Positions 169 to 64,000 of a DNA stretch of 64,000 bases are shown here, one piece after another (positions within the stretch are counted from its first letter, which is position 1; the number at the start of each line of letters is the position of its first letter). The notes beneath the pieces were generated by a model. It was not told the origin of the DNA and searched no databases. It was given only the letters and a program-made list of their open reading frames with translations. The translations under genes and the position numbers were made by a program. The stretch comes from Octopus vulgaris (lineage: Eukaryota): the NCBI GenBank assembly GCA_951406725.2, contig OX597829.1, positions 13,268,001-13,332,000 on the forward strand, given 5' to 3'.

Positions 169-538
169 TGCCTTTGCACAGCTTCTAACGCTAGAGATGA
201 ACTTCGGCGTCAACTGTTCACTACCAATGTACTAAGGTAACACACCTTATTTTTCGAGCACCTTCCGGAGTATTCGAGCGGTTCCAAGCAGTGCTGTTTT
301 CCGCAAATGCTCCACCCTTATTGCAGCCCCAATCTTTTCTATATACTTTTCAAGATTTTTACTCACTACTGCTACCTTTTTCATCGATCACCACTGCTTA
401 ACTTCCCAGACTAGCTTGTCATATCTCTCGACTTTTCTTTCTTCCTAATCACATTGTTGTCAGATGATATATCTATGGTCCAACATAGTTTGCTTTCTTT
501 CTCAAGACTATGTCCGGCTTCCTATTCTCTATCTCATC
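166..538 (-). mobile_element. 3' fragment of R4/Dong-like RLE retrotransposon (family C): endonuclease C-terminus and 3' UTR
   Basis: Reverse complement reads ENRKPDIV...EERKVERYDKLVWEVKQ...KTALLGTARILRKVLEK*. 3' UTR closely matches 55400-55490. Confidence 0.85.
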
Positions 539-2419: not shown

Positions 2420-5380
2420 CTAGTCCTTCGATATTGTCCTGCATGTTTTGCACCCTTGTGGACAATAAAGAAGTTGTTGTTGTTGTTATCCCAGAGGATA
2501 GTGACATTTTGACCAGCAAACAGGAATGTTGATTTTGTAGTGTTTACATATTTTCCAATGTATATACTGTCCCACTCTTATCGTGACAACTTTTGTATTC
2601 GTTTGGTATCAGCACAGGACTTCTCGAGACGAGATGGTCTATTGTTTCATCAAATGCGTCGCAGAATCTGCATTTAGCGTCAGAACCGTTTTGAAGAACG
2701 TTAGCCTTTTAGTGTTTGGTGAGCAAGCTTTATTCTTGTGCCGAGAATCTGAAACCTTCAGTTTCTGTGTTCAGTCCTGAGCTTCTCAGCCACTGATGTG
2801 TTGTTGCATGGTCGACATCAGCATTTAGGCTTCGAAAAATAAACTGTCCATGCGGAGACTTTTGGCTCCACCGCTCTTGAATTTGTTTCTATCCGTTCTT
2901 CTTTGCGGTCTGTTTGTTCCGTTTTGCTTTTTCGCGGTAGTTGTTTCAGGTTCTTCATCTAATTCAGGGTTAATGCCGAGTTCCCTTGTGAATTTGCAAG
3001 CTTCTCTGACAATAGAATGTGTTTTTTTTTTTGCTGCTTCCGTGTTTGCACACAAGCCGCAGCATCCAGTCCTAGTACTAGATACATACCTGTTCATTGG
3101 TATTGTGGAGATCTTATAGCACAGTTCTAGCTGCATCATTCCTCTTCCCCCATTACTTCTAGGTAGGTACAGACGATCGACGTCTGCTTTTGGGTGATGC
3201 ATGTTCTTAGATGTTAGTAGTTTTCTTGTCTTCTTTTCCAGGCGTTGGAGTTCCATTAAATGATGTTAAAATTGTATTGGACTATTAGAAGTGCCAGGGT
3301 GTTAATGGCTTCTATGCGATTTTTAGTGTTGAGTTCAGATTTTAGTATGTCGTATTCTTCTGTAATACTCCTTTCGTATTTTTCATTCATAGAAGGATGT
3401 TGTATACCATCTCCTTCGTTTATTCTCAGTTATTTATAGCTTTCTTGTGAGCCAAGCTCTTTGATAGTAGTGTCGGCATCTAACTTAATGGAAGCCTGTT
3501 TGCTTGAGCTTGTCTCTTAAAAAATTTGCTTTAGCACGCTTATCAAATCCAAAATCCATTCTGATGGTATTGCTGAACTCTTTACTGGCTTTTCGTCATT
3601 GCTAGCAAAGAGCTTCGTTTGAGAGTGGAATCAGTACCATGCAAAAGAGTATTAGGGAGAGGGATTCATCTTAAAAGCTGCTTCGTTTGATGTTGATGTT
3701 GTTGGAAGGCGACGTGTATTCCACTTGTAAGAATTTGGAGACGACAGGAAAGGTCTTGTATATCTCAAGGGCCTTGAGTAGCCGATTATGTGGGACACTA
3801 TCAAACGCTTTCCCATAATCTATTCATACCATACTAAGGTTATTCTTTTTGCTCCGGCAATTCTCTGCAATCATTTTATTTAATAGTAATTATTTTTGCA
3901 TCCATAAGAATTCCTTTTACAACCTTTTTGAGCTTGTAGAACGATAGAGTTCTGTTCAAGGAATGTATCTATTCTTTCATTTAGTATCGATGCGAAGATG
4001 TTTTACGTGGTCGGTAGTTCTTTGGATTTTTCGCATCTTCAGTTTTTGGTAGAAGGTATGCTGTTCTTTCGGTCAGCCAGGCAGGTATTTGCTCTGGGTT
4101 CTGGATGACAGGGATGCAGCAAAATATTGGTGTACTTCCGTCAAAAAATTCAGCCAGAAGTTAGGGATCCGGCCCAGCCCTAGGGTTTTCCATTTGTGAG
4201 ACTTTTTAAGAACACGCTTTAGCTCTTCTACAATTGCCTACCATTTCTGCTTTTCAACTTCATCCAGCCTCGTTTTCTCACGTCCTATCCAGTGAGCTTC
4301 AGCATTATATTCTTTTTTTTTTTTGTTGCTCCATCCAGAGCTCTTTCATTTCCTCAGTCTTAGGTGCCTCCTTTACTTTTATCTTGCCTTTGACAATTTC
4401 CCTATAAATTTTGTTGCATTCGTCTTGAATACCTTTCGATAAAATTTGATTCTTTTGTCATACCTTCTAAGCCATTGGGCTTTTAATTGTATTCGTTATT
4501 TCATTAGTTCCTTGGTTGCGGGGAGGTTTATAAAATCCTTTATTTCATATTTTTACGTGATTTTTCTAGCTTGTTTCGTTTAACATTTACTCTTCTAGCA
4601 AGTTCATCGAGAACTGGTACATCCGCACGCAGAGATTCGATCCCTTTTGTATTGCTATTTTCCACCTAGGAGATCTATTGATATGGTCCCTTTCTGTGTT
4701 GTACTGAAACCTACTTGAGCAGTTAAATTTCTAGCAGTGGAATAGATGAGGTTATTTACGATTGTTAGTTAATTTCCCTTATTTCCTAAGATCTGTCTTA
4801 GAGCAACATTATACACCATGGTATTGGTGTTAATTTTATGCTGTTTTAGAGCTTTGGTAGCAGTTCTCTATTGATCCTGTCAGTAAATTCAGTCTTGTTG
4901 GGTTCTCTCATATCTTCTTTTGCTTCTATGATCTCTTTATTATTCACCTCAAATTCTGTTTCAAATATATTCTGGTGTTCATGAGGTAGGTCTACTTTCT
5001 TCTCTTTTTTCACATATCTTTTCTTCGCTATTCTGTCGTTCGGATGTACTGGTTGTACACTGGGTTCTGTGCATCAATTATCTATTTTATCTGCATTGTT
5101 GCAATTTTCATTTGGTCTGCCATTTGGTTACTTTCAGCGTCAGTTGATCTTTTATTCTTAATAATGTGTCTACGTACATTACTTAATTTGTTTGCGTCTA
5201 TATATCTGCATACTTCGTTGCCTATAAAGTTTCTCCATGAAGTGTATGTTTGTACAATGAGGTCATTGTTTGGGTTTAGGTGAAATGTATAGAAAGCTTT
5301 CAACATATCTTTATAATCCTTTCTAGTTCATTTTATGCGTTTTATTTAGGGGGCGTTTTTGATGATGTCACTACAGCTCT
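2420..5380 (-). mobile_element. Old degenerate copy of R4/Dong-like family A (many stops and deletions)
   Basis: ORFs 5082-5306 and 2825-3256 align by eye to 9697-12729 (LKAFYT..LNPNN..VQTY.SWRN; ELQRL..KTRKLLTSK.MHHPKADVDRLYLPRS.GGRGMMQLELCYK). Confidence 0.9.
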
Positions 5381-5384
5381 AGGG

Positions 5385-7030
5385 TAAGGGTAATCGTGGT
5401 TCAGTAGGATAGTCTGTTTCAAATATAGTCGTGCAGGTCTGTCCACGAAAAACTTCACCTTCTTCGATACATCATAGAAAGGGCTGGGGCTAAAGCTGGC
5501 TTCGGGCGTACTCTGATCAATTCGGATCAATCCAAAGCATTCGAGAGCAACGGCCATCGCTACTTGGAAGCCAATCTGAAAGCAGATGGTTTCGGACCCG
5601 TTTTTAGAGACTGGATTGCTGCAATGCACAGCGGTACCTTTTCAGTGGCCAAAGTAAACGGCCACCTATCGGGGCTGTTTGGCATCACATGCTCGGGCCG
5701 TCAGGGCTGCACACTGTCGCTTCTTCTCTACGTATTGGTTCTCGAGTCACTACTGCGAAACTTGGAACAGCTAAAGGGCATCCTTTTCGAACTGGGACGA
5801 TGAAGGACAGTGTCGGCATACGCGGATGACGCCACCGTTATGGTGTCGGACGCCTCCGAAGTGGAGACAGTCGGCACCATCCTAAAAGAATATGAGTCGG
5901 TTGCAGGGGCTAAAATTAACGCCGACAAATCGATGGATTTGTGGTTGGGCTCCTGGAGAGGCAGGACGATGCTATCGGAAGGCGTCGTTGGACGCTGGAC
6001 CAACGGATCAGTTGAATTGATCGGGATCTGGTTTGGTCCCGACCTCCGGGTTGATAAGAACTGGGACGAGGTGGCGAACAGGGTAGCTAGTCTTACTCAA
6101 AAATGGGCTGAGAGGAAGTTAAGAGGATTAGGTATGCCATGGCTGCTCATGCGAAGACACGCCGTTAGGTTATGTCCCTCCAAAGATTTCTGGACGGTGA
6201 TTGAGTGTGGACTACGTGTGACGAGAATGAACTGTCTAGTGTGGTCCGGAGAACTTTTCGTTCGGGAACTATCATGGATAATTTCCAGGTGCTTTTGGCC
6301 TGGCATTGCTACCGATGGGTACTACCGGTTCGAGATAACTCTGCAGGCATGGATGTGCTGTCAGACGGGCTTGTCCGAGATGCGTGCTGTATGACGAAAC
6401 CGTTCTGCACGTCCTCGTTCAGTGTCCGGGCATTGCTGTCACGTGTGGGACAGATCTGTCTGTCGGTCGTGTCTGTAGTGATGATCGCCCCGACGGCCTC
6501 CTTCAATCGGGCAGGCAGTTTTTCTTTCTCTAGTGGCTGTGGTAAAAGAAGTTATTTGGTGGATAAGGCTCTTTGGTAGAGCTCTCATTGACTTTTCAAG
6601 TTTCCATGTAAAGGAAACTGAGAGTTGAGAGGGAAGTATTGTCTTCGAGTGAGTTTATTGAAAAGTGGATGAAAGTTGCGAACATGGCAAGAGTGTATGT
6701 TACCTCTCTAAGTGTAGACCTGTGAGTCGAAGGGAAGGAATTGGAGAGGGCAGTTGCCCTTGGGGTTTCAGGGAAGTCTGCGACAGTGAGGTTCCTCGAT
6801 TATCCCTAGAGGCCTTCCTGTATCAGGAGGGCCACATCTCTATAAACTACCCCAACACTTTTTTAAAAACCTTTGTATGCTATGCATATGTCTCTTCTTT
6901 TTCTGTGTATACCATGTTTACTTTCTTTCGTTCTTTCACTTTTTTAATCATTTTATTAAATCCTCACACTATATGTCTGTCTTTCTATGGCCCCCTTACC
7001 CTTCGTGCTCGTGGCAAATAAGTGAAATCA
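5385..7030 (+). mobile_element. Degenerate Tx1/L1-clade LINE, RT and 3' end
   Basis: DQSKAF, GFG...WI, SGRQGCTLSLLLYVL, SAYADDATV, GAKINADKS, LIGIWFG motifs; T-rich 3' UTR ending AAATAAGTGAAATC next to the microsatellite. Confidence 0.8.
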
Positions 7031-9178: not shown

Positions 9179-12100
9179 GATGTTCCCTGGGAGCCTCTCT
9201 CCAAAAAACGAATTTAATCCAACAACATCGTTACAATGGAAGAAAGGTTCCACAAAATATCTTTTCCAAACTTTCTTTTAAGGCAAAGTAACTAAAAAGT
9301 CCGAACTATTATTGCCGTATATAGTATGGTTTTCTTTCTTTTATGCATAATATTTCCATGTGACATGCATAAGAAATAGAAGCGAACATCAGAGCTCTTG
9401 AAAGACAGTAAGTACATAAATTGATTAATTAATTAATTAATTAAATAAGTATACATGCAACTGTTTATGCATACACGTAGACATTTTAATTGTAAAGTAT
9501 ACATGCAACTGTTTGTGCATGCATGTACACATTTTAATTATAAAGCATAAATAATGCTTACACGCGCTCACACGTACACACAGAAAGAAAAACCACGTTA
9601 CGCGGACGAAAACAAAACAAAAACAAAGCGATTTTTCACGAACAAACGCAAAAAAGAGCAAATTGGTCACTGAATTTAGAAAGTCACTGAACAGTTATGC
9701 CCGGAAACATGACTACCAAAATAAATAGAGGCGAATTTCGATCTGTAAGTCTTATGCGAGTTCGATATGAACAATATATTAATTCGGAGAATTCAGAAGC
9801 GGTGTTTTGTCAAAAAATTGACCCTGTACAAACACTCCCTTCTTCTAACGACACCGTCACAGAGGCGGCGTCTTGTCAAAAAGTTGACTCTGAAAAAATG
9901 GACCCCTCTGATGTCGCCGTCAATCATTTAATGAAAACAAGCCAAAAATCATGCCGGATCGGTCATCGCCCGGGACAACAAGGACCGCGTTACCCAGTAG
10001 GGAACCAGACTGGGGTCGAAAAGTTTGCTGCTGGAACAAACTCTCAAAAAGACGATCTACCAGGTGACCAGAACCAGAATACTTCTAACTCTGGACTTGT
10101 AGTGACACCACCAAAAACACCACCTAAAGCAAAACGTATAAAATGGACCAGAGAGGACTATAGAGATGTGTTGAAAGCTTTTTATACAGCCCAACTAAAC
10201 CCAAACAATAACCTCAGTGTACAAACATACATCTCATGGAGAAATTCAGTAGGCAATGACGTACGTAGATATATAGACGCAACTAAATTAAGTAATGTAC
10301 GCAGAGATATAATTAAAAACAAAAGACTAACTGACGCTGAAATTGACAAAATTAGGATACTAATAGCTCATGGTAGACCAAAAGAAAACAGCAACAATGT
10401 AGACGAAATTGGTAACAGTAGCACAGAAGCCAGTGTACAAGCGGCAAATCAACTTCCCAATGGGGAAGTTAAACAAAGAATAGCGAAGACGAGAGATTTG
10501 AAAAAAGAGGAGAACGTAGACCTTCCTCAAGAAAACCAAAATAGATATGACATAGAATTTGAGGTGAATAATAGAGAAAAGATTATGGAAGCAAAAGTGG
10601 ACATTATGAGAGAACTCGGCAAGATTGAGCTCACTGACATGGTTAATAGAGAACCACTACCAAAGTTTTCAAATGGCACAAGAAATAACAACACAATCAT
10701 GACATATAACGTTGCCCTAGGACATATCTTAAGAAATAAGGGGAATGATTTGACAACCTTAAATAATCTCATTTATTCCACTGCTAAAGTAGTAACAACC
10801 CAACTAGGTATTAAGATGACAAAGAAAAAGGCCAGGCATGTCAATGAACCTCCTAAGTGGAAAGTAGCGATACAAAAAGAGATTGAATCTCTGCGGGCGG
10901 ATGTTTCAGTTCTCGATGAGCTTGCTAGAGGAGTGAATATTAAGCCGAGAAAAGCTAGAAAAATCAAGCAAAAATATAAAATCTAAGATCTCATAAACCT
11001 CCCTGCAACTAAGGAACTGTTGAAACAACGGATACAGTTGAAAGCTCAACGGCTTAGAAGGTATGACAAAAGAAACAAATTTTATCGACAAAATAAATTT
11101 GTTAAGACAGATGCAAAGAAATTTTATAAGGAAATTGGCAAAAATAAAATACACATAGAAGATCCACCTAAGATTGAGGAGGTGGAGGAGTTCTGGAAGA
11201 AGGTATGGAGCAACGAAAAAGAGTTTAATGCTGAGGCTGACTGGATAGAACGTGAGAAAGAGAGACTGGATGAACTTAAAGAACAGAAATGGGAAGCAAT
11301 AGGAATAGAGGAGCTAAGGTGTGTCCTTAGGAAGGCTCATAAATGGAAAACCCCAGGACTGGATTGGATCCCTAACTTCTGGCTGAATTGTTTGACAGAG
11401 GTACACGAACATCTCGCTGCATCTCTGTCTGATGTCATTCAGAACCCAGAGCAAATACCTGCTTGGCTGACTGAAGGAACCACCTACCTATTACCTAAAA
11501 CCGAAGACACAAAAAACCCAAAGAATTACCGGCCAATAACATGTCTCAACAGCACCTACAAAATCCTCACATCCATAATAACGGAGAGAATGTACGCTTT
11601 CCTTGAACAAAATTCTATCTTTCCACAAGCTCAAATAGGTTGTAAAAGAAACTCTTATGGGTGCAAAGACCAATTGCTCATAAACAGAATGATTGTAGAG
11701 AATTGCCGTAGCAAAAACAAAAACCTGAGTATGGCATGGATAGACTACAGGAAAGCGTATGACAGTGTCCCACATAAATGGATACTCAAGGCCCTTGAGA
11801 TATACAAGATCTCTCCTGTCGTCTCAAAATTCTTAGAGAATAGCATGACCATGTGGAACACACGTCTCTTTCTAAGCCATAGTAATGGGATGAGCCAGTC
11901 CAACAGCATCAACATCAAACGAGGCATCTTTCAAGGTGACTCCCTCTCTCCATTACATTTTTGCATGGCACTGATCCCACTCTTAAACGAATTGGATAGT
12001 ACCAGATATGGGTACAAAGTTTTTAGTAAGTCAATAAACCACCTTTTCTATATGGACGACCTAAAGCTGTTTGCCAGGAATGACCAAGAGCTAGAAGGGC

Positions 12101-13757
12101 TGCTAACAACTGTTAACGAGTTTAGCAATGATATCGGAATGGATTTTGGCCTTGATAAGTGTGCTAAAGCAACTTTTGTAAGAGGCAAGCTCAGGCAAAC
12201 AGCTTCTATTAAATTAGATATTGACACTACCATCAAGGACCTTGACCTACAAGAAAGTTACAAATACCTAGGAATCAACGAAGGAGATGGTATACATCAT
12301 GCTACTATGAAGGAAAAAATAAGAAAGGAATACTATAGGAGAATAAGGCTTGTACTGAAGACTGAACTCAACTCCAAAAATTGCATTGAGGCCATTAACG
12401 CCCTGGCACTTCCAGTAGTCCAGTACAGTTTTTACATCATTATCTGGAACCTTACGGAACTCCAACGCTTGGACAGGAAGACAAGAAAGTTACTGACATC
12501 CAAGAGCATGCACCACCCTAAGGCAGATGTAGACCGCTTGTACCTACCTAGAAGCAGCGGGGGGAGAGGAATGATGCAATTAGAGCTGTGCTATAAGACC
12601 TCTACTGTAGGAATGAACAGGTACCTATCTAGTACAAAGGACTGGATGCTGCGACTTGTGTGCGAACACGAAAGCAGCAAAAGCTACATTCTATTGTCAA
12701 GGAAGCTTATAAGTTCGAAAGGGAACTAGACATTAACCTTGAATCAGATGAAGAGCCGGAAACCACTGCTACCAAGCAAGCAAAGCGAATCAAGCAGACT
12801 GCAAAAAAGAACGGGCAGAATCAAATTGAGAGGCGGTGGAGTCAGAAGCCCCTGCATGGACAATATATTCTCCGAAGCCAAAATGCTGATGTAGACCAAG
12901 CAACAACCCATTAGTGGCTGAAGAGCTCTGGATTGAAAGCAGAGACTGAAGGTTTCATAATGGCAGCACAAGATCAAAGCTTGTTTACCAGAAATTACCA
13001 GGCTAACGTTCTCCGAAACTGTACTGACCCTAAATGCAGATTCTGCGACACATTTGACGAAACGATAGACCATCTCGTTTCGGGATGTCCTGTGCTGACA
13101 CCAAACGAATACAAAAATCGCCACGATAGGGTAGGACAGTATATACATTGGAAGATATGTAAACACTACAAATCCGACACTCCTGCTAACTGGTATGAAC
13201 ACCATCCTCAGCCAGTTGTTGAAGGTAAAGATGTCACCATCCTCTGGGATTTTCCAGTCAACACTGACAGAACGATCAAGGCTAATCGACCAGACATAAT
13301 TGTTAAAGACAGGGAAGAAAATACCTGCAGACTAATAGAAGTAAGCGTCCCCACTGATAAAAATGTATCTGTCAAGGAATTTGACAAACTTAGTAAATAT
13401 AAGGACCTGGAAATCGAAATACAGAGGATGTGGAATCTTAAAACAAAAACTGTTCCTGTTATTGTAGGTGCCCTAGGTATGATAAAAAAGGGATGTCAGA
13501 AACACCTAGACAATATCCCTGGAAAACCATGTCTCAAGGAAATCCAAAAGATTGTGCTAATAAGTACTGCCCACATCCTTAGAAAAACCCTATCAATATA
13601 AATGTTTGTGTTTGCATTACATGGAGATATATCTCTACTTCCCCTCCCCAAGCTTTCAGCTATATTTCAACAACTCTTAACCTTCACTTGCCCTAGGGCG
13701 CTGGGTGTGCCCCGGCAGGTGATTGCATCAAACATGCAGATTAAAAGTAAAAGACAA
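9177..13757 (+). mobile_element. Near full-length R4/Dong-clade RLE non-LTR retrotransposon (family A) inserted in (AAT)n
   Basis: ~520-bp 5' UTR, single ORF, ~155-bp structured 3' UTR; (AAT)n on both sides; no APE domain; C-terminal CCHC plus PD-(D/E)xK nuclease. Confidence 0.93.
9697..13601 (+). pseudogene. Family A polyprotein (~1300 aa): Myb-like N-terminus, reverse transcriptase, CCHC knuckle, restriction-like endonuclease; 3 apparent lesions
   Basis: KRIKWTREDY (Myb-like); NYRPITCL, WIDYRKAYDSVPH, RGIFQGDSLSP, FYMDDLKLF (~12049); CRFC..ETIDHLVSGC; RPDII..LIEVSVP..KLSKY. In-frame TAA at 10984, 1-nt frameshift at ~12680, TAG at 12912. Confidence 0.92.
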
Positions 13758-13773
13758 TAATAATAATAATAAT

Positions 13774-14329
13774 AAATGCCCTGATGCAGTACCTGGCAGT
13801 GGCTCTCGTGGCTTCTGATCTTAACTGATTGGAAGTGTTATCATGTACATTGTTTTGTCTTGGTATAAAAGATGAGCTACAGCAAATATTCTGCTCAATA
13901 CCACAGATTTGCTTGCCAGTTGTTTGTCCTTAACCAGTTGAACATGTCCCTTAGTGGCTGACGATATGTACATCTCTGATCACGAGCAGAAGTAGTGGGG
14001 GAGCATCATAGTCATGTGTTGAGAGGGATTCTTTGGGGCTTGAATAATTCACCTCTGGAAACATGGGTGGTTCTTTCAACATCCTTAAACAACCCTTATT
14101 CAGGGACCTTTTGAGTGGGATGGGCTACTCAACCTGAAGAAAATTCTAACTGGGCCCCACCTGCAAGGTCATGTGCCGTTTATCTTGATATGAGATCACC
14201 ATGTCGCGCACATATGGTTGTGATGCATGTGCCTGGTGTACCCTTATCAGACGGGTAGTCATGATGGGTAAATTGGGCTTCGTATATTTTGCCCCAGTGT
14301 CACTTTGATGGCATGCACTGCTCTCTCAC
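13774..14329 (+). mobile_element. ~555-bp non-coding (AAT)n-embedded SINE-like element, copy 1
   Basis: Near-identical to five other copies; starts AAATGCCCTGATGCAGTACC, ends CTCTCTCAC(TC)+(AAT)n. Confidence 0.85.
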
Positions 14330-14408
<79 letters not shown>

Positions 14409-14431
14409 TTAATAATAATAATAATAATAAT

Positions 14432-14989
14432 AAATGCCCGGATGCAGTACCAGGCAGTGGCTCTCATGGCTTCTGATCTTAACTGATTGGAAGTGTTATC
14501 ATGTACATTGTTTTGTCTTGGTACAAAAGATGGGCTACAGCAAATATTCTGCTCAATACCACAGATTTGCTTGTCAGTTGTTTGACCTTAACCAGGTGAG
14601 CATGTCCCTTAGTGGCTGACGATATGTGCATCTCTGATCACGAGCAGAAGTAGTGGGGGAGCATCATAGCCATGTGTTGAGAAGGATTCTTTGGGGTTTG
14701 AATAATTCACCTCTGGAAACATGGGTGTTTCGTTCAACGTCCTTAAACAACCCTTATTCAGGGACCTTTTGAGCGGAATGGGTTACTCGATCTGAAGAAA
14801 ATTCTAACTGGGCTCCACCTGCAAGGTCATGTGCTGTTTATCTTGATATGAGATCACCATGTCGCGCACATATGGTTGTGATGCATGTGCCTGGTGTACC
14901 CTTATCAGACGGGTAGTCATGATGGGTATACTGGGCTTCGTATATTTTACCCCAGTGTCACTTTGATGGCATGCTCTGCTCGCTCACTC
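14432..14989 (+). mobile_element. ~555-bp (AAT)n-embedded element, copy 2
   Basis: Same termini and body as copy 1, separated from it by an (AAT)n tract. Confidence 0.85.
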
Positions 14990-15137
<148 letters not shown>

Positions 15138-15142
15138 TTAAT

Positions 15143-15590
15143 AAATGCCCGGATGCAGTACCAGGCAGAGGCTCTCATGGCTTCTGATCTTAACTGAATG
15201 GAAGTGTTATCATGTACATTGTTTTGTCTTGGTATAAAAGATGGGCTACAGCAAATATTCTGCTCAATACCACAGATTTGCTTGTCAGTTGTTTGACCTT
15301 AACCAGTTGAGCATGTCCCTTAGTGGCTGACGATATGTGCATCTCTGATCACGAGCATAAGTAGTGGGGGAGCATCATAGTCATGTGTTGAAAGGGATTC
15401 TTCGGGGCTTGAATAATTCACCTCTGGAAACATGGGTATTTCGTTCAACATCCTTAAACAACTCTTTTTCAGAGACCATTTGAGTGGAAAAGCTACTCCA
15501 CCTTACGAAAATTTTAACTGGGCCCCACTTGCAAGGCCATGCCCTGTCTATATATGAGATCCCCATGTGGCACGTATATGGTTGTGATGC

Positions 15591-15592
<2 letters not shown>
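15143..15592 (+). mobile_element. ~555-bp (AAT)n-embedded element, copy 3 (3'-truncated, more diverged distal part)
   Basis: Same 5' end; stops at GGTTGTGATGCAT into (TA)n. Confidence 0.8.
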
Positions 15593-21604: not shown

Positions 21605-21635
<31 letters not shown>

Positions 21636-22136
21636 GAAATCTACGGATACACTAATGCGCAAAACGGAGAAATTGAAACAACCCCGAGTGGGGGAACAGT
21701 TCTTCAAAAAACCCTCGATTGTTTTCCTCCAAAAGTTCCTATGTGCTCGGAATCTATATAGTCCGAGGTATATTTGTAGAGAATTTCATTAAAAAATATC
21801 CATTTTCTTGAAAGTTAAGACGAATGAAGTGGACTCCGGTAAATTTTCAGAAGTTCCCCATCCAACGCCCTCCTAAAACACTTTCTCCACAAAATTTTGT
21901 ATAATCAAAATCTACATGATTTTCTACACGTAGAAATTTTCATTAAAAAATGCCCATTTTTCTGTGAGTTATCTTCATCCAAAATCGGGGAGAAAGAAAT
22001 TTGTTGTTACGCCAGATAATCATTTACTCCTTTCATCTCACTTTCTCCTACAATCGAGGGTTTTTTGAAGAACTGTTCCCCCACTCGGGGTTGTTTCAAT
22101 TTCTCCGTTTTGCGCATTAGTGTATCCGTAGATTTC

Positions 22137-22168
<32 letters not shown>
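21605..22168. repeat. Perfect ~118-bp inverted repeat (21605-21722 / 22050-22168) enclosing a dispersed repeat
   Basis: TTAGAAATCTACGGATACACTAATGCGC...CCCTCGATTGT is mirrored exactly, including the flanking (TG)n/(CA)n. Confidence 0.9.
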
Positions 22169-42967: not shown

Positions 42968-45077
42968 AGGTGTAAAGATCAACTACTCATCAATAAGATG
43001 ATCCTAGAAGATTGTCACAAACGACACAAAAACTTATCAATAGCCTGGATAGACTATAAAAAGGCTTTTGCTAGCCTACCACATAGCTGGATTGAGAAAT
43101 GCCTGGAAATGTATAAGATAGCACCTACTCTGCGAAACGTTTAGTCTGTAAGTATGAGATCATGGAGAACCACACTAACTTTGAACAGTGACAATGAATC
43201 TCTAAATGCTGGTGATGTAAAAATTCCATGTGACATTTTCCAGGGTGACTCACTATCACCACTCCTCTTTTGTTTAGCCTTAATACTTCTCTCAAAATTG
43301 CTCAATGACGCGCAGTACGGATATAAAATGTTTGACAAAAATATAAATCATCTAATTTACATGGACGATTTAAAGCTCTTTGCAAAAAATGACCAATAAC
43401 TCAAGGGCTTACTAGTGATTGTTAAACAATTCAGTGACGACATCAGAATGCAATTTGGCCTCGATAAATGTGCAAAAGCTACTTTTATCAAACGAATAAT
43501 GACAGAAACATCTAACGTTAACCTTGATCAGCAGAATGTCATAAAAGAATTAGACCCAGCGGAGAGCTACAAGTGCCTAGGGGTAATTGAAGGGGACGGA
43601 ATAAGGCATTTAGTGATGAAGGAAAGGATCAGGATAGAATGTAATCGCAGAGTAAGAGCAATACTGAAGACAGAGCCTAATGCGAGAAACAGGATCGAAG
43701 CGATCAATGCCTTAGCCATACTAGTCGTGACTTACAGTTTCAATATCGTTAACTGGTCAATTACTGAAATATGTAATGTTGACAGAAAAATACGAAAACT
43801 GTTGATAATGCATAGAATGCACCACCCTAAGGCAGATATAGAACAACCTTATCTGCCAAGAAAAGAGGGAGGCCGTGGACTTTTACAACTTGCAATAACA
43901 ATGAAGATTGCTACAATTGGCCTAGACACCTACCTGAAAAAGTCTGAGGACTAGATGTTAAAACTTGTCTCAAGAAAGCATCATACTCAGTAACAAAACA
44001 GGCAAAGGAATATCTAAGTGAATTCCGAATACAACAAATTTCGGAATTAGACATACAAGAAACAAGCACAGAAAAAGCTAACGCATAAAGCCGTGGTAAA
44101 ACTGCTGCCTTAGATATTCTGAATGATAAATGACAAGAAAAACCTCTCTATGGCAAATACCCAAAGAGAGCGAATAATGCAGATGTTGACAAAGCCCTGA
44201 CCCATCAATGGCTAATGGCCTCTGGCTTAAAATCTGAAACAGAAGGGTTTATCATAGCAGCTCAAGATCAATGCCTACCAACAAGGAACTACCAGGCCAA
44301 CATATCAAAGAACGGCAGTAGCCCAACATGTCGTGTATGTCAACAACAAAATGAAACCATTGATCATGTTGTCTCCAAGTGCAGTCTTCTAGCGCCTACA
44401 GAGTATCTCAACAGGCATGAAAGAGCTGCACAATATATTCACTGGGTAATCTGCAAAAACCTGGATTTGCCCCAGGAAAAAAACTGGTGGGAACACAAAC
44501 CACCTCCAGTGCTTGAAAATGACCACATCTCACTCCTCTAGAACTTTCTCATTCAAACTGACAGAAAGATAGATGCAAATAGGCTAGACATCATATTGAA
44601 AGACTTCAAACAAAGAACATGCCTCCTCATTGATATGACTGTCCCAATCGATATAAACGTATCTGTCAAGACCTACCAAAAACTGAGCAAATATAAAGAT
44701 CTTGAAATAGAAATCAGCAAAATGTGGAACCTGAAGACTAAAACAATACCTGTTGTCATAGGTGCCCTGGGAATGATAGCAAAAGGGGCTAATCGCTACC
44801 TAACTCAGATACCAGGAAACCCCAAAATGGCAGAAATTCAAAAGATAGTGCTCATGGGAACTGCTCATATCCTACGCAAAATACTTTCTATGTAATCTCA
44901 AGTTTTAAAACAAACATAATTTTCGTTTTTTTTGTTTTTGACATTCACTAGTATAACACTAAATACAAAACCAAATATATGGTACACTAGGCATAACAAC
45001 ATCACGAACTTCCAACCTGTCTCTGGGTGAAACTTGGAGCAAACTTTAACAAAAATGTAAAGCAAAAGTCAAGCATA

Positions 45078-55217: not shown

Positions 55218-55490
55218 TTATAGATATAGCATGCACAGCTGACAACAAAGTATGCGATAAGGAAGAAAGAAAAGTCGAGAGATATGACAGGTTAGCTTGG
55301 GAAGTTAAGCAGCTGTGGTCGATGAAAAAGGTAGTAGTAATACCAATAATTGTCGGAGCCCTGGGAACAGTGAGCAAAAATCTCGAGAAGTACGTGGAAC
55401 AAAATAAGAGGTGTTACTTTAGTTCATTGGTAGTGAACAGCTGACACTGTAGTACATCTCCAGCGTTAGAAGCTGTGCAAAGGCAATGAT
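55218..55490 (+). mobile_element. 3' fragment of R4-like family C
   Basis: IDIAC..EERKVERYDRLAWEVKQLWSMKKVVVIPIIVGALGTVSKNLEKY; 3' UTR shared with 166-260; followed by (AAC)/(AAT)n. Confidence 0.85.
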
Positions 55491-55586: not shown

Positions 55587-55590
<4 letters not shown>

Positions 55591-56146
55591 GCCCTGATGC
55601 AGTACCAGGCAGTGGCTCTCATGGCTTCTGATCTTAACTGATTGGAAGTGTTATCATCTGCATTGTTTTGTCTTGGTATAAAAGATGGGCTACAGCAAAT
55701 ATTCTGCTCAATACCACAGATTTGCTTGTCAGTTGTTTGACTTTAACCAGTTGAGCATGTCCCTTAGTGGCTGACGATATGTGCATCTCTGATCACGAGC
55801 AGAAGTAGTGGGGGAGCATCATAGCCATGTGTTGAGAGGGATTCTTTGGGGTTTGAATAATTCACCTCTGGAAACATGGGTGGTTCTTTCAACATCCTTA
55901 AACAACCCTTATTCAGGGACCTTTTGAGTGGGATGGGCTACTCAACCTGAAAAAAAAATTCTAACTGGGGCTCACCTGCAAGATCATGTGCTGTTTATCT
56001 TGATATGAGATCACCATGTCGCGCACATATGGTTGTGATGCATGTGCCTGGTGTACCTTTATCAGACGGGTAGTCATGATGGGTATATTGGGCTTCGTAT
56101 ATTTTACCCCAGTGTCACTTTGATGGCATGAACTGCTCTCTCACTC
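55587..56146 (+). mobile_element. ~555-bp (AAT)n-embedded element, copy 4
   Basis: Same termini as copy 1. Confidence 0.85.
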
Positions 56147-56226: not shown

Positions 56227-56228
<2 letters not shown>

Positions 56229-56715
56229 GTACATTGTTTTGTCTTGGTATAAAAGATGGGCTACAGCAAATATTCTGCTCAATACCACAGATTTGCTTGT
56301 CAGTTGTTTGACCTTAACCAGTTGAGCATGTCCCTTAGTGGCTGACGATATTTGCATCTCTCATCACGAGCAGAAGTAGTGGGGGAGCATCATAGCCATG
56401 TGTTGAGAGGGATTCTTTGGGGTTTGAATAATTCACCTCTGGAAACATGGGTGGTTCTTTCAACATCCTTAAACAACCCTTATTTAGGGACCTTTTGAGT
56501 GGGATGGGCTACTCAACCTGAAAAAAATTCTAACTGGGCCCCACCTGCAAGGTCATGTGCTGTTTATCTTGATATGAGATCACCATGTCGCGCACATATG
56601 GTTGTGATGCATGTGCCTGGTGTACCTTTATCAGACGGGTAGTCATGATGGGTATATTGGGCTTCGTATATTTTACCCCAGTGTCACTTTGATGGCATGA
56701 ACTGCTCTCTCACTC
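56227..56715 (+). mobile_element. ~555-bp (AAT)n-embedded element, copy 5 (5'-truncated by ~70 bp)
   Basis: Begins at ATGTACATTGTTTTG; intact 3' end followed by (AAT)n. Confidence 0.85.
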
Positions 56716-56740: not shown

Positions 56741-57205
56741 ACATGCTTCCTTATTGATATGACTGTCCCAATCGATATAAACGTATCTGTCAAGACCTAC
56801 CAAAAACTAAGCAAGTATAAAGATCTTGAAATAGAAATCAGTAAAATGTGGAACCTGAAGACTAAAACAATACCTGTTGTCGTAGGTGCCCTGGGAACGA
56901 TTGCAAAAGAGGATGATTGCTACCAAGCTCAAATACCAGGAAAATCCAAAATAGCAGAAATTCAAGAGATAGTGCTCATTGGAACTGCCCATATCCTACG
57001 CAAAATAATCTCAAAATATTAAAACAAACTCATAATTTTCTTATGTTTCCTTAAACATTCCCTAGAACAACATAACGTACAAAACCAAATATGTGGCGCC
57101 CTAAGCATAACACCGACATTACCTTCTAACTTGTTGTCGCTTGAGGTCTCTGGGTGAGACTTGGTGTCAACTTGTACAAATATAAAGCAAAAGGCAAACT
57201 TAAAA
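56741..57205 (+). mobile_element. 5'-truncated 3' end of R4-like family D
   Basis: ORF 56759-57022 is nearly identical to 44596-44895; 3' UTR hairpin present. Confidence 0.88.
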
Positions 57206-57807
<602 letters not shown>

Positions 57808-57878: not shown

Positions 57879-57881
<3 letters not shown>

Positions 57882-60800
57882 ACACCGGGGGACGTTTAAG
57901 ATGTAAGAACGATAAAACAGAGCTCCGAAATATATCCACAAACATCGAAAACAAGGACATCGTATGAAGCCAAAGATTTACTAACAAAGGATTGGACTGT
58001 ATCCGAGTAAGTAATACTAATTGAAATTTATTACTATTTTCGAAACGAAATGATGTATTTTGACTCGATATCATCTCCACCTCTAACACAACACATGTAA
58101 ACATGCGTGATACATTACGATCCATCAACACCAGATCATCCCCGACACCAAACACCATGTACAAAGGAACTACGGAGAAATTAAATGCCACCGATATTAT
58201 TCAACACAAGAATAACAATCGAGCGGTACGTACTTTAAACTTACAACACAAAATGTACGAAAAACTACACGTGCAAAACAATGTGACAACAGAAATGAAC
58301 GGACCGGTACCCTACGAAAATGACGACCGTCAAAATAATGGGCCGGACGTTGTACCTCATGTCCCGCAAATAAAAGCCAAAAGACATAAATGGACACGTG
58401 AGGAATACATTTCTATCTTACACGCATATTTAACAGCAGTGCTCTACCCAAAAAATGAAAATACAACAACACATACATATAAAATATGGAAGGAAAATAA
58501 CATAGACTTGGATACAGCAATGAACCCTAATAAACTAGCTAACGTACGAAGATAAATTCTCAACGCAAAAAAAATATCAGAAATAGAAATAGAACATCTA
58601 AAAGAAAAAATACACCAGGAAAATGTAGATAGAAGCCACACAACAATGCCCAATATTATAAACACTGAAACAGTAAAGCACGAAGACAAACGTAACATTC
58701 CCAACAAACACGATGTAAACAACGAATGGGAGCCTAATGATTATGATAATATGAAAAGTAAAATAATCAAAGAACTGAAAACCACAGAGCTCAAAATGGA
58801 TCACCGACCATACCTCCCAAGAATCAAAATAGACGAAACAACAACACCAATTATAAACAGCATAAACCTAGCCATCACGGAACTAATAGCCTCTGAAACA
58901 AAAAGCGATATCACTGAGCTAAATGACTTAGTATACGCAGCAGCCACTGCAGCCACAAAAGAAGCTGGATACTCACTCAAACCCATCCAAACTGGAGTAC
59001 CACCACCCAAACAAACCCTGTGGATAAATAACATCCAAAACAAGATACAAAAATGAGAAAAGATCTGTCGATTCTTAATGAAATCAGCAGACAATCAACG
59101 CTAATGAGCAACAAAAAGAAAACAAAAATAATCCGCAAATATACCATCACAGAAAAAGATTTACCAGAGATAAAAGAAAAGCTGAAGCACAAAGGATCCG
59201 CCGGTATGAGAAACGCCAGCGCTTCTTTGAACAAAACAAAAATTCTACCAAGAACTTGGCAAAAATAAAATAGAAATCACTGCAGCACCAACGGCAGAAG
59301 AAGTGGAAGAATTCTGGAGAGAAATATGGTCGGCGAACGAACAGCCAAAAAAAAAAGGAGTATTAAAACAACAAACTCAACATCTGAACAACTTTGGACC
59401 CCCATAACAGCTGAAGAGGTCACCCAGACACTGCAAAGACTAAGCAACTGGAAGGCACCTGGGCATGACAAGATCCCCAACTTCTGGTTGAAATATCTAA
59501 CAGTAATGCACAAAAATCTGGCTGAAAATTTTAACAGCATACTAGCAGAGCCAGAGACAAAGCCTGAATGGCCCACGAAGGGGAAAACCATCTTAATTCC
59601 CAAATCAAATGAGACAGCAAAACCAGAAAACTACAGACCAATAACCTGTCTCCCTACTATGTTCAAGGCATTTACTGCAGTAATATCACAAAGATTAAAC
59701 AAGCACCTGGACGAAAACAACCAGTTTCCAGAAGAGCAGAAAGGATGCCGCAAAGACTCATATGGCTGTAAAGATCAACTAATGATTAATAAAGCCATAA
59801 CTGAAGACAGCCACAGAAAGAAGAAAGGTCTCGGTATAGCCTGGATCGACTACAAAAAGGTGTTTGATAGCATCCCCCACACATGGATCCTCGAAACACT
59901 AGCCATTAACAAAGTAGCACCAACAATCATAAAATTCATAGAGCACTCTATGTATAAATGGCAAACAGTGCTACAGCTCCAAACAAAAAAGGGACTCATG
60001 AAAACCAAAGCCATCCCCATTAGAAGAGGAATATTCCAGGGAGACACGCTTTCTCCACTCATTTTCTGCTTGGCATTGTCACCTCTATCTGATATGCTAA
60101 ATAGAACAGGATGCGGGTATAAATGTTACGGCAAAAAGATCAGCCACCTTTTATATATGGATGACCTAAAACTATACGCTGCAAATGACAAACAGCTGGA
60201 AACACTATTAAAGACAGTTCATGGATTTACCAAAGAAATAGATATTAAATTTAGATTAGAAAAATGCGCCAAAGTAACCATGAAAAGAGGAAAACTAGTT
60301 AAGAGTAGCAACATCACACTAGATAAAACCAATGAAATAAAAGAATTAGACCAAAGCCAAACTTACAAATACTTAGGAATCCATGAACTAGATGAGACAC
60401 AACACACACAAATGAAAGAGAAAATAAAAAAAGAATATTATAGACGAGTTAGATCAATACTAAAAACAGAGCTCAATGCTAAAAACAAGATAATAGGTAT
60501 TAATACTTTAGCTGTCCCAGTTATAAGTTACAGCTACAATATCCTTAACTGGACACTAAATGAACTGACCAAAATAGATAGGAAAACAAAAAAAATAATG
60601 ACAGGATCTAGGATGCATCACCCAAAATCTGACATAGAAAGCCTATATATACAACGTATAGAAGGTGGTAGAGGCCTTATACAACTGGAAACTACTATAA
60701 AATAACCACCATAGGACTGCAAAAATATCTACTTCAGAAGGAAGGAAAACTGATACAAATAGCGGCAAAACACGAGCAAAACAAAAAACTGTTCTCAGTA

Positions 60801-61794
60801 TTTAAGGAAGCTGACAAATACAAACAAGAAATCATACCACCTAATAAACACAAAGAAGAAGAAGAAGATGAAGAAACAACAAAAGCTATAAAACAAATGA
60901 AATCCAAACTAAAAATAGAACAGCAACGAACCATGATAAAACGGTGGCAAGAAAAGCCCCTTCATGGTAAATACTGGACTAAACTAAACGCAAAAAAATA
61001 GACAAAGAAAAATTCCAGCAATGGTTGAGAAGCTCAGGACTCAAAGCAGAAACAGAGGGATTTTTAATTGCAGCACAAGACCAAATCCTCCCCACCAGAA
61101 ATTACCAAAAACATGTAATGAAAAGAAATATAAGTAACTGCAGAATATGTGGAGATGGACAAGAAACAATAACTCATATTATCTCTAGCTGCCCAGTCCT
61201 GGCTAAGAAGGAATATATTCACAGACATGACAGAGTTGGAACCTACATACATTGGAAGCTATGCCAACATTATGGAATGACAACAGAAAAAAGACGGTAT
61301 AGGCACACACCAAAAAAGGTCATAGAAAACGAGAAAGCAACTATACTCTGGGATATGCCGATACACACAGATAGAGAAATTAAGGCCAACAGACCAGATA
61401 TAGTTGTCAGAGATCATGAAGAAAAAAATGCTTTCTAATTGATGTATCAATACTGGAAGATGACAACGTGTCTCTAAAAGAAATGGAGAAACTTTCAAAA
61501 TACAAAGACCTGGAAATAGAAGTAACCAGAATGTGGAATCTAAAAACAGAAACAATTCCTATCATAGTAGGAGCATTAGGCATGATAAAACAAATATTCA
61601 GACAAATACATCACAAAAACACCAGGACTTACAAACACATATAACATACATAAAATTGCACTACTAGGCACTGCACACATCCTACGCAGAAAACTTTCCA
61701 TACAATAACCATCAGAGAATCACAACAAATCACAGCACATAGCCAAGGGACATAGAGCTGCACTCGGTAGTGAAGTGAAAGCACGCTATAAAAA

Positions 61795-61910: not shown

Positions 61911-62721
<811 letters not shown>

Positions 62722-63265: not shown

Positions 63266-64000
63266 TTCATTTTTTGTGAATGATTTCAGTGTATAAGAAA
63301 AAAAGTAAGAGTCTTTTACAGTGTTCTGTTTCAGAATATGAAATTTAGTAAAAGCGTGTAATATACAGTTTTTTGTGGAAAAGTTCAATGTCAGATTTCA
63401 GTGTAGAATAAAAAAAGTAAGAGTTTACCGGTTGCGCATTTGTTATGCTTATCAAAAGATATTTTGAGTGAGATAGAGTTCCTTTCTGATTGATTTTTTC
63501 TCTTATCTGACTTTATGTTGGGTTTGCTGTCTCTTATATGTGAAAAAAGAGGCTCCAGAGTTGTTTAAGATTTGCTTGGTTTCGCGCCTAAAATTTCTTG
63601 TGGACAATGGTCAATACAATTTTGATTGGTCATTATAAAGGGGTCACGTGAATGTTTGAATGGAAGTTGGTGTTGGGGTAAGAAAATAGGCTCCAGAGAT
63701 GTTAAAATTTGGCTGGTATCGCGCCTAAAATTTATTGGTCATAATAAAGAGGTCACGCGAATGTGGTCATAATAGAGAGGTCACGTGAATGTTTAGAATG
63801 AATGTTGGTGTAGGAGGCATAACAAATGGGCAACCGGTAAACTCTTACTTTTTTTTATTCTACACTGAAATCTGACATTGAACTTTTCCACAAAAAACTG
63901 TATATTACACGCTTTTACTAAATTTCTTATTCTGAAACAGAACACTGTAAAAGACTCTTACTTTTTTTCTTATACACTGAAATCATTCACAAAAAATGAA
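63266..64000. mobile_element. Foldback/MITE-like element with >=183-bp inverted arms and internal ~138-bp direct repeat; runs off the window
   Basis: 63266-63448 is mirrored at 63817-64000 with 2-3 differences; AGGCTCCAGAG...CGCGCCTAAAATTT...GGTCACGTGAATG occurs at ~63550 and ~63688. Confidence 0.82.

Follow-up and report, generated by a model that had tools for sequence, protein, structure and literature searches.

Among retrotransposons with a restriction-like endonuclease (RLE; clade lists in PMC4640811 and PMC7650587), RNA recognition was found described only for R2, whose tail structures are established (PMC10499050, PMC12180492, PMC12503042). In R2Bm, the "R2 tag" P1-J1/2-P2 is a small structured core, made of two stems and a single-stranded junction, in a 248-nt UTR. 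Its stems vary while unpaired adenosines are conserved, it is read by the NTE-1 helix, whose residues R307, R310 and R311 bind the 3' UTR at stem P1; the divergence of the UTRs made the key bases hard to find (PMC10499050). The -1 region of R2 is needed for RNA binding and TPRT (PMC4117753). A-clade R2 elements, even divergent ones, have in common an architecture of the pseudoknot-hinge-stem type where the 3' UTR ends, with a purine-rich single strand following the first structure, and the N-terminal zinc finger is needed (PMC12180492). Outside the RLE elements, the tail stem-loops of the stringent L2-clade LINEs ZfL2-1, ZfL2-2 and UnaL2 are required for retrotransposition and are bound by a basic region that precedes the RT; one bulged base is important, and family specificity comes from the loop sequence (PMC4176376). 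R4/Dong elements combine an RT with a REL endonuclease, have (TAA)n targets and lack N-terminal zinc fingers (PMC7998251, PMC3812793), and a diverged N-terminal SANT/Myb-like domain was found in them by HHpred (PMC7998251); Dong elements and TAA targets are also treated in PMC9115989 and PMC10294476. In Entamoeba, the EhLINE/EhSINE and R4-1_ED pairs have SINE-like partners which share the 3' end, in an account that also reviews tail stem-loops (PMC3747384). The available portions of these R4/Dong and Entamoeba accounts (PMC7998251, PMC3812793, PMC3747384) give no 3' RNA structure, and none was found for R4/Dong in a survey of titles and abstract openings, so that an earlier mention elsewhere is possible. 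The stem-loop of PMC6609765 was considered and is unrelated to the one described here. A stem-loop in a LINE tail is an old idea; the one described here keeps its geometry and core bases across a broad RLE branch.

The window analysed here, a 64-kb stretch of microsatellite-rich DNA of eukaryotic type, contains five families of RT elements (A to E, delimited by self-comparison and tblastn), all of them decayed. Their ends are AAT/GAT-type arrays, and families A and B also begin after such arrays, as is the case in most of the relatives' loci. The first-pass annotation had drawn one bulged hairpin in the 3' UTRs of all five families, and the strings it quoted are all present in the window. The best preserved example belongs to family A, whose features are as follows.

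9179-13755 (start about 9179), plus strand: family A element, near full-length
9691-10983, 10987-12726 (RT) and 12915-13601 (CCHC knuckle and RLE), plus strand: pieces of the family A ORF
13684-13722 (core 13690-13716), plus strand: family A hairpin, with an outer stem, a 3x1 internal loop (CUA opposite C), a 6-bp inner stem and a UGGGU loop
13717-13755, plus strand: A-rich linker of 39 nt from the hairpin core to the tail, including the outer-stem extension
13756-13775, plus strand: (AAT)n tail or target repeat

The ORF of this copy is interrupted by one stop and one frameshift, and the RT regions of families A and B match Pfam RVT_1 with E values of 6e-31 and 2e-32, respectively. The family A hairpin as originally drawn is the minimum-energy fold of 13684-13722 (z -3.5, with 0 of 200 shuffles equally stable); its geometry holds, while "3x1 internal loop" is a better term than two bulges. 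Eleven variants are listed in it among the contigs aligned to family A: seven lie in the stems with pairing kept, two fall on unpaired bases, and a pair is broken by the two others, both rare. Pair-keeping is weak support here, since a C>T change on the 3' arm yields a G-U pair unaided. The change 13698 G>A keeps pairing only with 13710 C>T, and one loose-end contig has both, the variant table being without linkage.

The other copies of the hairpin in the window are the following.

1881-1919 (core 1887-1913), plus strand: family E hairpin with an AAAGA loop; the tail, at 1948, follows after 34 nt
57133-57171 (core 57139-57165), plus strand: family D hairpin, copy 2, found by strict descriptor and model
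57586-57624 (core 57592-57618), plus strand: family D hairpin, copy 3, in a short 5'-truncated insertion (57401-57654)
about 45018-45044, plus strand: family D copy 1, a hairpin remnant with the 5' arm lost
55411-55447, plus strand: family C hairpin, with UUA opposite A, 6/6 inner pairs and one outer mismatch
206-244, minus strand: family C hairpin, second copy, with 5/6 inner pairs, missed by the model
61735-61774, plus strand: family B hairpin, degenerate, with 4/6 inner pairs and a 6-nt loop, ending the element 57880-61787

Families E and D (copies 2 and 3) match the strict 3/6/5/6/1 descriptor with zero mismatches, as the annotation had them, except that its span for the first of these D hairpins (57139-57166) was one base too long; the copy at about 45018-45044 had escaped it. 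The 5' arm of this remnant, as compared with 57586-57624, appears to have been deleted between short direct repeats. For family C the inner pairs of the earlier drawing all stand in one copy and all but one in the other, while one outer pair is broken, energy alone does not give the fold and the model misses it; the copy at 55411-55447 also carries a deletion which spans the ORF end. Family B had been called a degenerate version, in agreement with its 4/6 inner pairs and a pair probability of 0.05, and energy alone does not give this fold either. The strict descriptor is unspecific on its own, with 12 matches on both strands of the window, of which four lie at R4-type ends. Given this, and the weakness of families C and B, the window alone could not settle whether the hairpin is real.

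We therefore turn to related elements. Full-length homologues of the protein number 83 (1062-1276 aa), each with a single long ORF with an RT domain. The CCHC knuckle pattern is present in 82/83, the PD..D RLE pattern in 75/83 and an N-terminal zinc-finger pattern in 0/83. In profile alignment the protein matches the knuckle of R2 and, weakly, its RLE; Pfam gave no AP endonuclease family in five full-length homologues, which sets them apart from the AP-endonuclease L2 elements (PMC4176376). A block is conserved at the N-terminus of the homologues; Pfam gave no Myb/SANT match at E<=5 in seven proteins. The combination of an RT, a CCHC knuckle, a PD..D RLE, (AAT)n ends and no N-terminal fingers fits the description of R4/Dong, and the elements likely belong to this clade, as assigned by domain layout and target rather than by a tree with named references. 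None of the relatives found is named R4, Dong or Rex6, and identity to the R2 structures is about 20%. Three of the full-length homologues (P0203, P0206 and P0219) carry an extra Pfam domain, PF02338, which we take to be the OTU-like protease family.

Relatives were collected in one metagenome scan (the best 80 of 471 confirmed stretches), with two GTDB loci added, giving 82 loci; viral contigs yielded none (0/52 pattern matches). The element ends from these loci and from the window were clustered into 25 families that extend at least 38 nt past the end of the ORF; of these, 20 come from outside the window. By inspection of these metagenome and genome contigs, the hairpin is present with five or six of the six inner pairs in 16/20 outside families (L001, L003, L004, L005, L006, L009, L011, L012, L044, L014, the L016 group, L022, L034, L040, the L074 group and L082). 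The remaining four comprise two degenerate versions with 4/6 inner pairs (L008 and L017), a contig which ends inside the hairpin (L031) and one divergent family with a 2x1 variant; L007, which clustered with L011, is without a 3' end. The setting is the 3' UTR of a single-ORF element with an RT and a restriction-like endonuclease, ending in (AAT)n. The proteins of the hairpin-bearing families are 39-73% identical to that of family A over the C-terminal region, and in the protein tree they are interspersed with named relatives of hydrozoan, coral, echinoderm (two), shrimp, psyllid and louse origin. Support at the deep nodes is modest, and these animals are placed by protein.

Across 22 aligned families the anatomy is as follows. 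The outer stem has at least three pairs, with two C-G pairs adjoining the internal loop. The long side of this loop reads Y-N-A, with A in 21/22 families and C (12/22) or U (10/22) as first base, while the short side is a single base (C in 16, U in 4, A in 2). The inner stem has six pairs and starts with G-Y, so that the conserved sequence around the internal loop is C-C-Y-N-A-G on one side and Y-Y-G-G on the other. The apical loop is 5 nt long in 17 families, while four have 4 nt and one has 6 nt; its central G is invariant in an alignment of 17 families and is replaced by A in window family E. This differs from L2, where the loop sequence gives family specificity (PMC4176376): here the conserved sequence at the 3x1 internal loop and the one loop G are common to the families, and the function is predicted. 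It also differs from R2Bm, with its two stems and single-stranded junction (PMC10499050), in being one contiguous 27-nt hairpin. The fold is not energy-favoured in 4/20 families, the inner-stem pair probability being at most 0.05 for L006, L017, C and B, and damaged hairpins exist (window D copy 1, L035 and L052). Two of the loci (L077:750-860 and L051:140-230) contain insertions of about 100 nt which are mostly hairpin and linker, with triplet arrays on both sides.

Conservation by covariation had been proposed from the five window families, which are insufficient to show it; it is shown on 17 to 25 families. In a pairing-blind test on 25 families, one site was picked per family with a leave-one-family-out profile built on 12 anchor bases. 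At these sites, 99/125 cells of the five unconstrained inner pairs were paired, against 45.4±5.3 in shuffled UTRs (maximum 66 in 20,000 draws), and at least four of the five pairs formed in 17/25 families (null mean 1.6). With anchors taken from three window sites only, 70/100 cells were paired in the 20 outside families. In a tree-aware test, a G-test with average-product correction was compared with 2000 alignments simulated on the protein tree, which approximates R-scape but is not R-scape itself; the alignment of 22 families was registered by hand and left out L005, L007, L031 and the variant family. Five stem pairs ranked as the top 5/741, with E<0.0005 for four of them and 0.038 for the other, so the larger alignment bears out the covariation. 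The other four pairs of the structure vary too little for covariation to show (E from 0.67 to 432), among them the two conserved C-G pairs adjoining the internal loop (no covariation, E>100). A sequence-only MAFFT alignment of 17 outside families gave the same register, except for the placement of a one-base gap in L008 and L022, with 92% of cells paired (21-46% in slid controls) and two-sided changes in 8/9 pairs; RNAalifold recovered only the inner stem from the 17-family alignment.

A covariance model, a check suggested along with the first drawing, was built from the 17 outside families without any window sequence. It gave 15 window matches at E<=10, the top four being the hairpins of A (5e-8, 33 bits), D (1e-5), D (8e-5) and E (0.002); families C and B and the 556-bp repeat described below are absent from these 15. 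The fifth match, at 6556-6591 (E 0.93), was taken as chance. In the relatives' loci the model had 48 matches, and eight that had not been picked by hand were inspected: seven lie at the ends of known families, of which six have a triplet tail behind them and one is truncated where the contig stops, and the weakest (E 2.6) is unrelated. These results bear directly on whether the hairpin could be a selection artefact, or a DNA-level inverted repeat without RNA function. The 12 descriptor matches in the window and the hand registration of the 22-row alignment could be read in that direction. The excess of G-U over A-C cells in the same alignment (18 against 6) favours a sense-strand RNA, with the caveat that it is partly built into the site choice. 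Against an artefact, the pairing-blind choice, the sequence-only alignment, the tree-aware null and the model without window sequence all recover the hairpin, and a mirror geometry occurs in only 1/20 outside families, compared with 9/20 for the 3x1/6-bp one (5x3/4-bp and 4x2/5-bp geometries, found in 12/20 and 10/20, are in the same register and require fewer pairs). This explanation is largely refuted, and we give it next to no credence. The hairpin is a real and well-supported structure, conserved and covarying at R4/Dong-type 3' ends. The claim that it is an R4-like 3' UTR structure holds to that extent and not as a universal, since one divergent lineage has the 2x1 variant.

The position of the hairpin is nearly fixed relative to the 3' end. 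Where a tail was detected (17 families), the distance from the end of the hairpin to the tail is 27-54 nt (median 39, SD 7.7), whereas the distance from the ORF end to its start varies from -5 to 198 nt (SD 50). A role in translation termination, readthrough or mRNA decay might be suspected from L016, L022, L040 and family C, where the hairpin begins about 10 nt or less from the end of the ORF, but the wide spread of the ORF-end offset beside the narrow tail distance makes such a role very improbable. A second conserved stem, as in R2Bm, was looked for downstream of the hairpin and none was found: in pseudoknot-free folding, the segments fold like shuffles (mean z -0.13 over 20 families, with 3/20 below -1). 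This, together with the scarcity of conserved unpaired bases (the internal-loop A and the loop G) and a location 27-54 nt inside the end instead of at it, speaks against a small self-cleaving or otherwise catalytic RNA that would release the element's 3' end when tandem insertions are transcribed by read-through. The elements do stand in tandem in the same (AAT)n arrays, so that an end must be defined, but no Rfam family, ribozymes, SECIS and IRE included, matched at the gathering score in the 64 kb, and six sub-threshold matches at 13560-15000 are at chance level; we consider catalysis highly unlikely.

A host factor could instead read the hairpin for 3'-end formation, stability or nuclear import, with no part in template choice. 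The same motif in families with proteins only 39-73% identical to that of family A could reflect a conserved host partner, and the fixed distance to the 3' end would suit processing too. The asymmetric 3x1 loop in a hairpin, its first base often C (12/22), also resembles the C-loop, a nuclear import signal in viroids (PMC9516175). The trans Watson-Crick/Hoogsteen pair of a C-loop, which joins the first loop base to the short strand's distal closing base, would correspond here to alignment columns 10 and 30, where all four pyrimidine combinations occur (C/C 6, C/U 6, U/C 7 and U/U 3); C with U cannot form that pair (PMC9516175), and this disallowed combination is found in 6/12 of the families that start with C. 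These combinations do not support an identity with the C-loop. Since the element's own protein also retains an R2-type RNA-binding helix, we regard a host factor as an unlikely reader, though a less unlikely one than the alternatives considered above.

The helix is the following feature of family A.

10999-11109, plus strand: predicted long basic helix before the RT, NTE-1-like (residues 5-41), from predicted fold and profile alignment

The fold was predicted for the unaltered ORF piece 10987-12726 with the 83 homologues (pLDDT 88.8) and is closest to R2 TPRT complexes (TM 0.76-0.80). In a profile alignment of low identity, R25, K28 and R29 of the helix (11059-11073) align to R307, R310 and R311 of R2Bm. 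R25 is R in 80/83 homologues, the position of K28 is basic in 87% and R29 is R in 80/83. The covariation, the near-fixed distance to the tail and the retention of this R2-type basic helix together suggest that the hairpin is probably a cis tag by which the RT-endonuclease of the element recognises its own RNA for TPRT, as the first-pass annotation had proposed. In such a mechanism, the basic helix would dock at the conserved 3x1 internal loop and the loop G could offer the protein a second contact, with the variable 6-bp stem serving as a spacer; thanks to the flexible A-rich linker, the (AAU)n end would reach the nicked (ATT)n strand, the primer of cDNA synthesis, and pair with it. The tag reading draws on the analogy with R2Bm, also an RLE-type element, where a small structured core with variable stems and conserved unpaired adenosines is held by the three arginines to which these basic residues align (PMC10499050). 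As in L2, a small stem-loop lies close to the element's 3' end; in L2 the basic region before the RT binds it (PMC4176376). The A-clade R2 structures resemble it in an architecture common to divergent elements at the 3' UTR end and in the purine-rich single strand after the first structure, and differ in the pseudoknot and in needing an N-terminal zinc finger (PMC12180492), a pattern found in 0/83 homologues here. Several observations weigh against a tag: RLE elements in general have a basic helix at this place, irrespective of the RNA bound, the alignment over the helix is of low identity, the C-G pairs next to the internal loop do not covary, RNAalifold gives only the inner stem, and there are the damaged copies, the 4/20 families with unfavourable energy and the 2x1 lineage. 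The latter (L025:867, L029:2807 and L055:1961) has a 15-nt apical part with one compensatory change among the three copies, and its protein, 33% identical to that of family A, groups with beetle and butterfly proteins (support 0.97). At L025:866-955, L029:2806-2895 and L055:1960-2050, the 2x1 variant hairpin is followed by a second hairpin.

The hairpin is a compact candidate tag, supported by covariation, for a second RLE clade. It names targets for mutation, both in the RNA (the internal-loop A, the flanking C-G pairs and the loop G) and in the protein (R25, K28 and R29), and it opens self-recognition and cross-mobilisation in R4/Dong to direct tests. As a short marker it helps to annotate 3' ends and non-autonomous partners, and it could provide a minimal template module for directing gene insertions into microsatellites. 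A broader and distinctly more speculative proposal is that a whole branch of R4/Dong elements, whose relatives occur in cnidarians, echinoderms, crustaceans and insects, has a single 27-nt tag in common, read at the internal loop by an arginine helix. Families with unalignable UTRs might then cross-mobilise in trans, the 556-bp repeat might be a tag-mimicking parasite, and the tag with its linker (about 70 nt) might suffice to direct any RNA into (AAT)n; we consider this less likely than not.

The repeat in question adjoins R4-type tails, and the similar hairpin near its 3' end had escaped the first-pass annotation.

13776-14329 (plus strand), 14434-14989, 15145-15592, 55589-56146, 56227-56715 and 62053-62598: six copies of a 556-bp non-coding repeat, 88-98% alike
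14231-14278, plus strand: candidate hairpin of the repeat, with UUA opposite U, a GGGUA loop, an extra A in the inner stem and a 13-bp outer stem, 61 nt before the tail, without a model score

An (AAT)n array precedes 6/6 copies and also follows 5/6. The plus strand is strongly structured (z -3.7, compared with -0.7 for the minus strand), and the common variants 14243 C>T and 14273 T>C keep plus-strand pairing in the candidate hairpin. A descriptor match at 14093-14119 in the repeat, with three G-U pairs and about 210 nt from the tail, was not counted. The repeat resembles neither R4-type proteins nor the relatives' loci and shows no ORF similarity and no Rfam match; ARAGORN detected no tRNA in the window, hence no tRNA head for the repeat, and no autonomous partner with its tail sequence was found by self-comparison of the window or in the relatives' loci. 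With neither a model score nor a partner with the same tail, there are about even odds that the repeat is a non-autonomous passenger of R4-type elements. In the copy at 14434-14989, eight bases at the 5' end (element positions 16-23) are complementary to the 5' arm of the terminal hairpin (455-462), so that the two ends might pair with each other as an alternative. In three runs, tens of thousands of contigs aligned to the region of the repeat, contig depth not being equal to copy number; the one raw DNA run gave 12 aligned reads, none of which covers the hairpin.

Some further features of the window were observed. Between 55150 and 63000, families C, D and B and the 556-bp repeat lie head to tail in the same orientation, in one expanding AAT/TAC/GAT array. 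A relative of family A, 75-80% alike and without a 3' end, lies at 2495-5343 on the minus strand; beyond it, near 2120-2420, the sequence reads like another RT fragment on the opposite strand. A fragment of a different RT, not of R4 type, is located at 5804-6394 (weak Pfam RVT_1 match). Two near-perfect inverted repeats are also present, at 63266-63448 and 63817-64000 (184 bp, 98%) and at 21634-21722 and 22050-22138 (89 bp, 100%).
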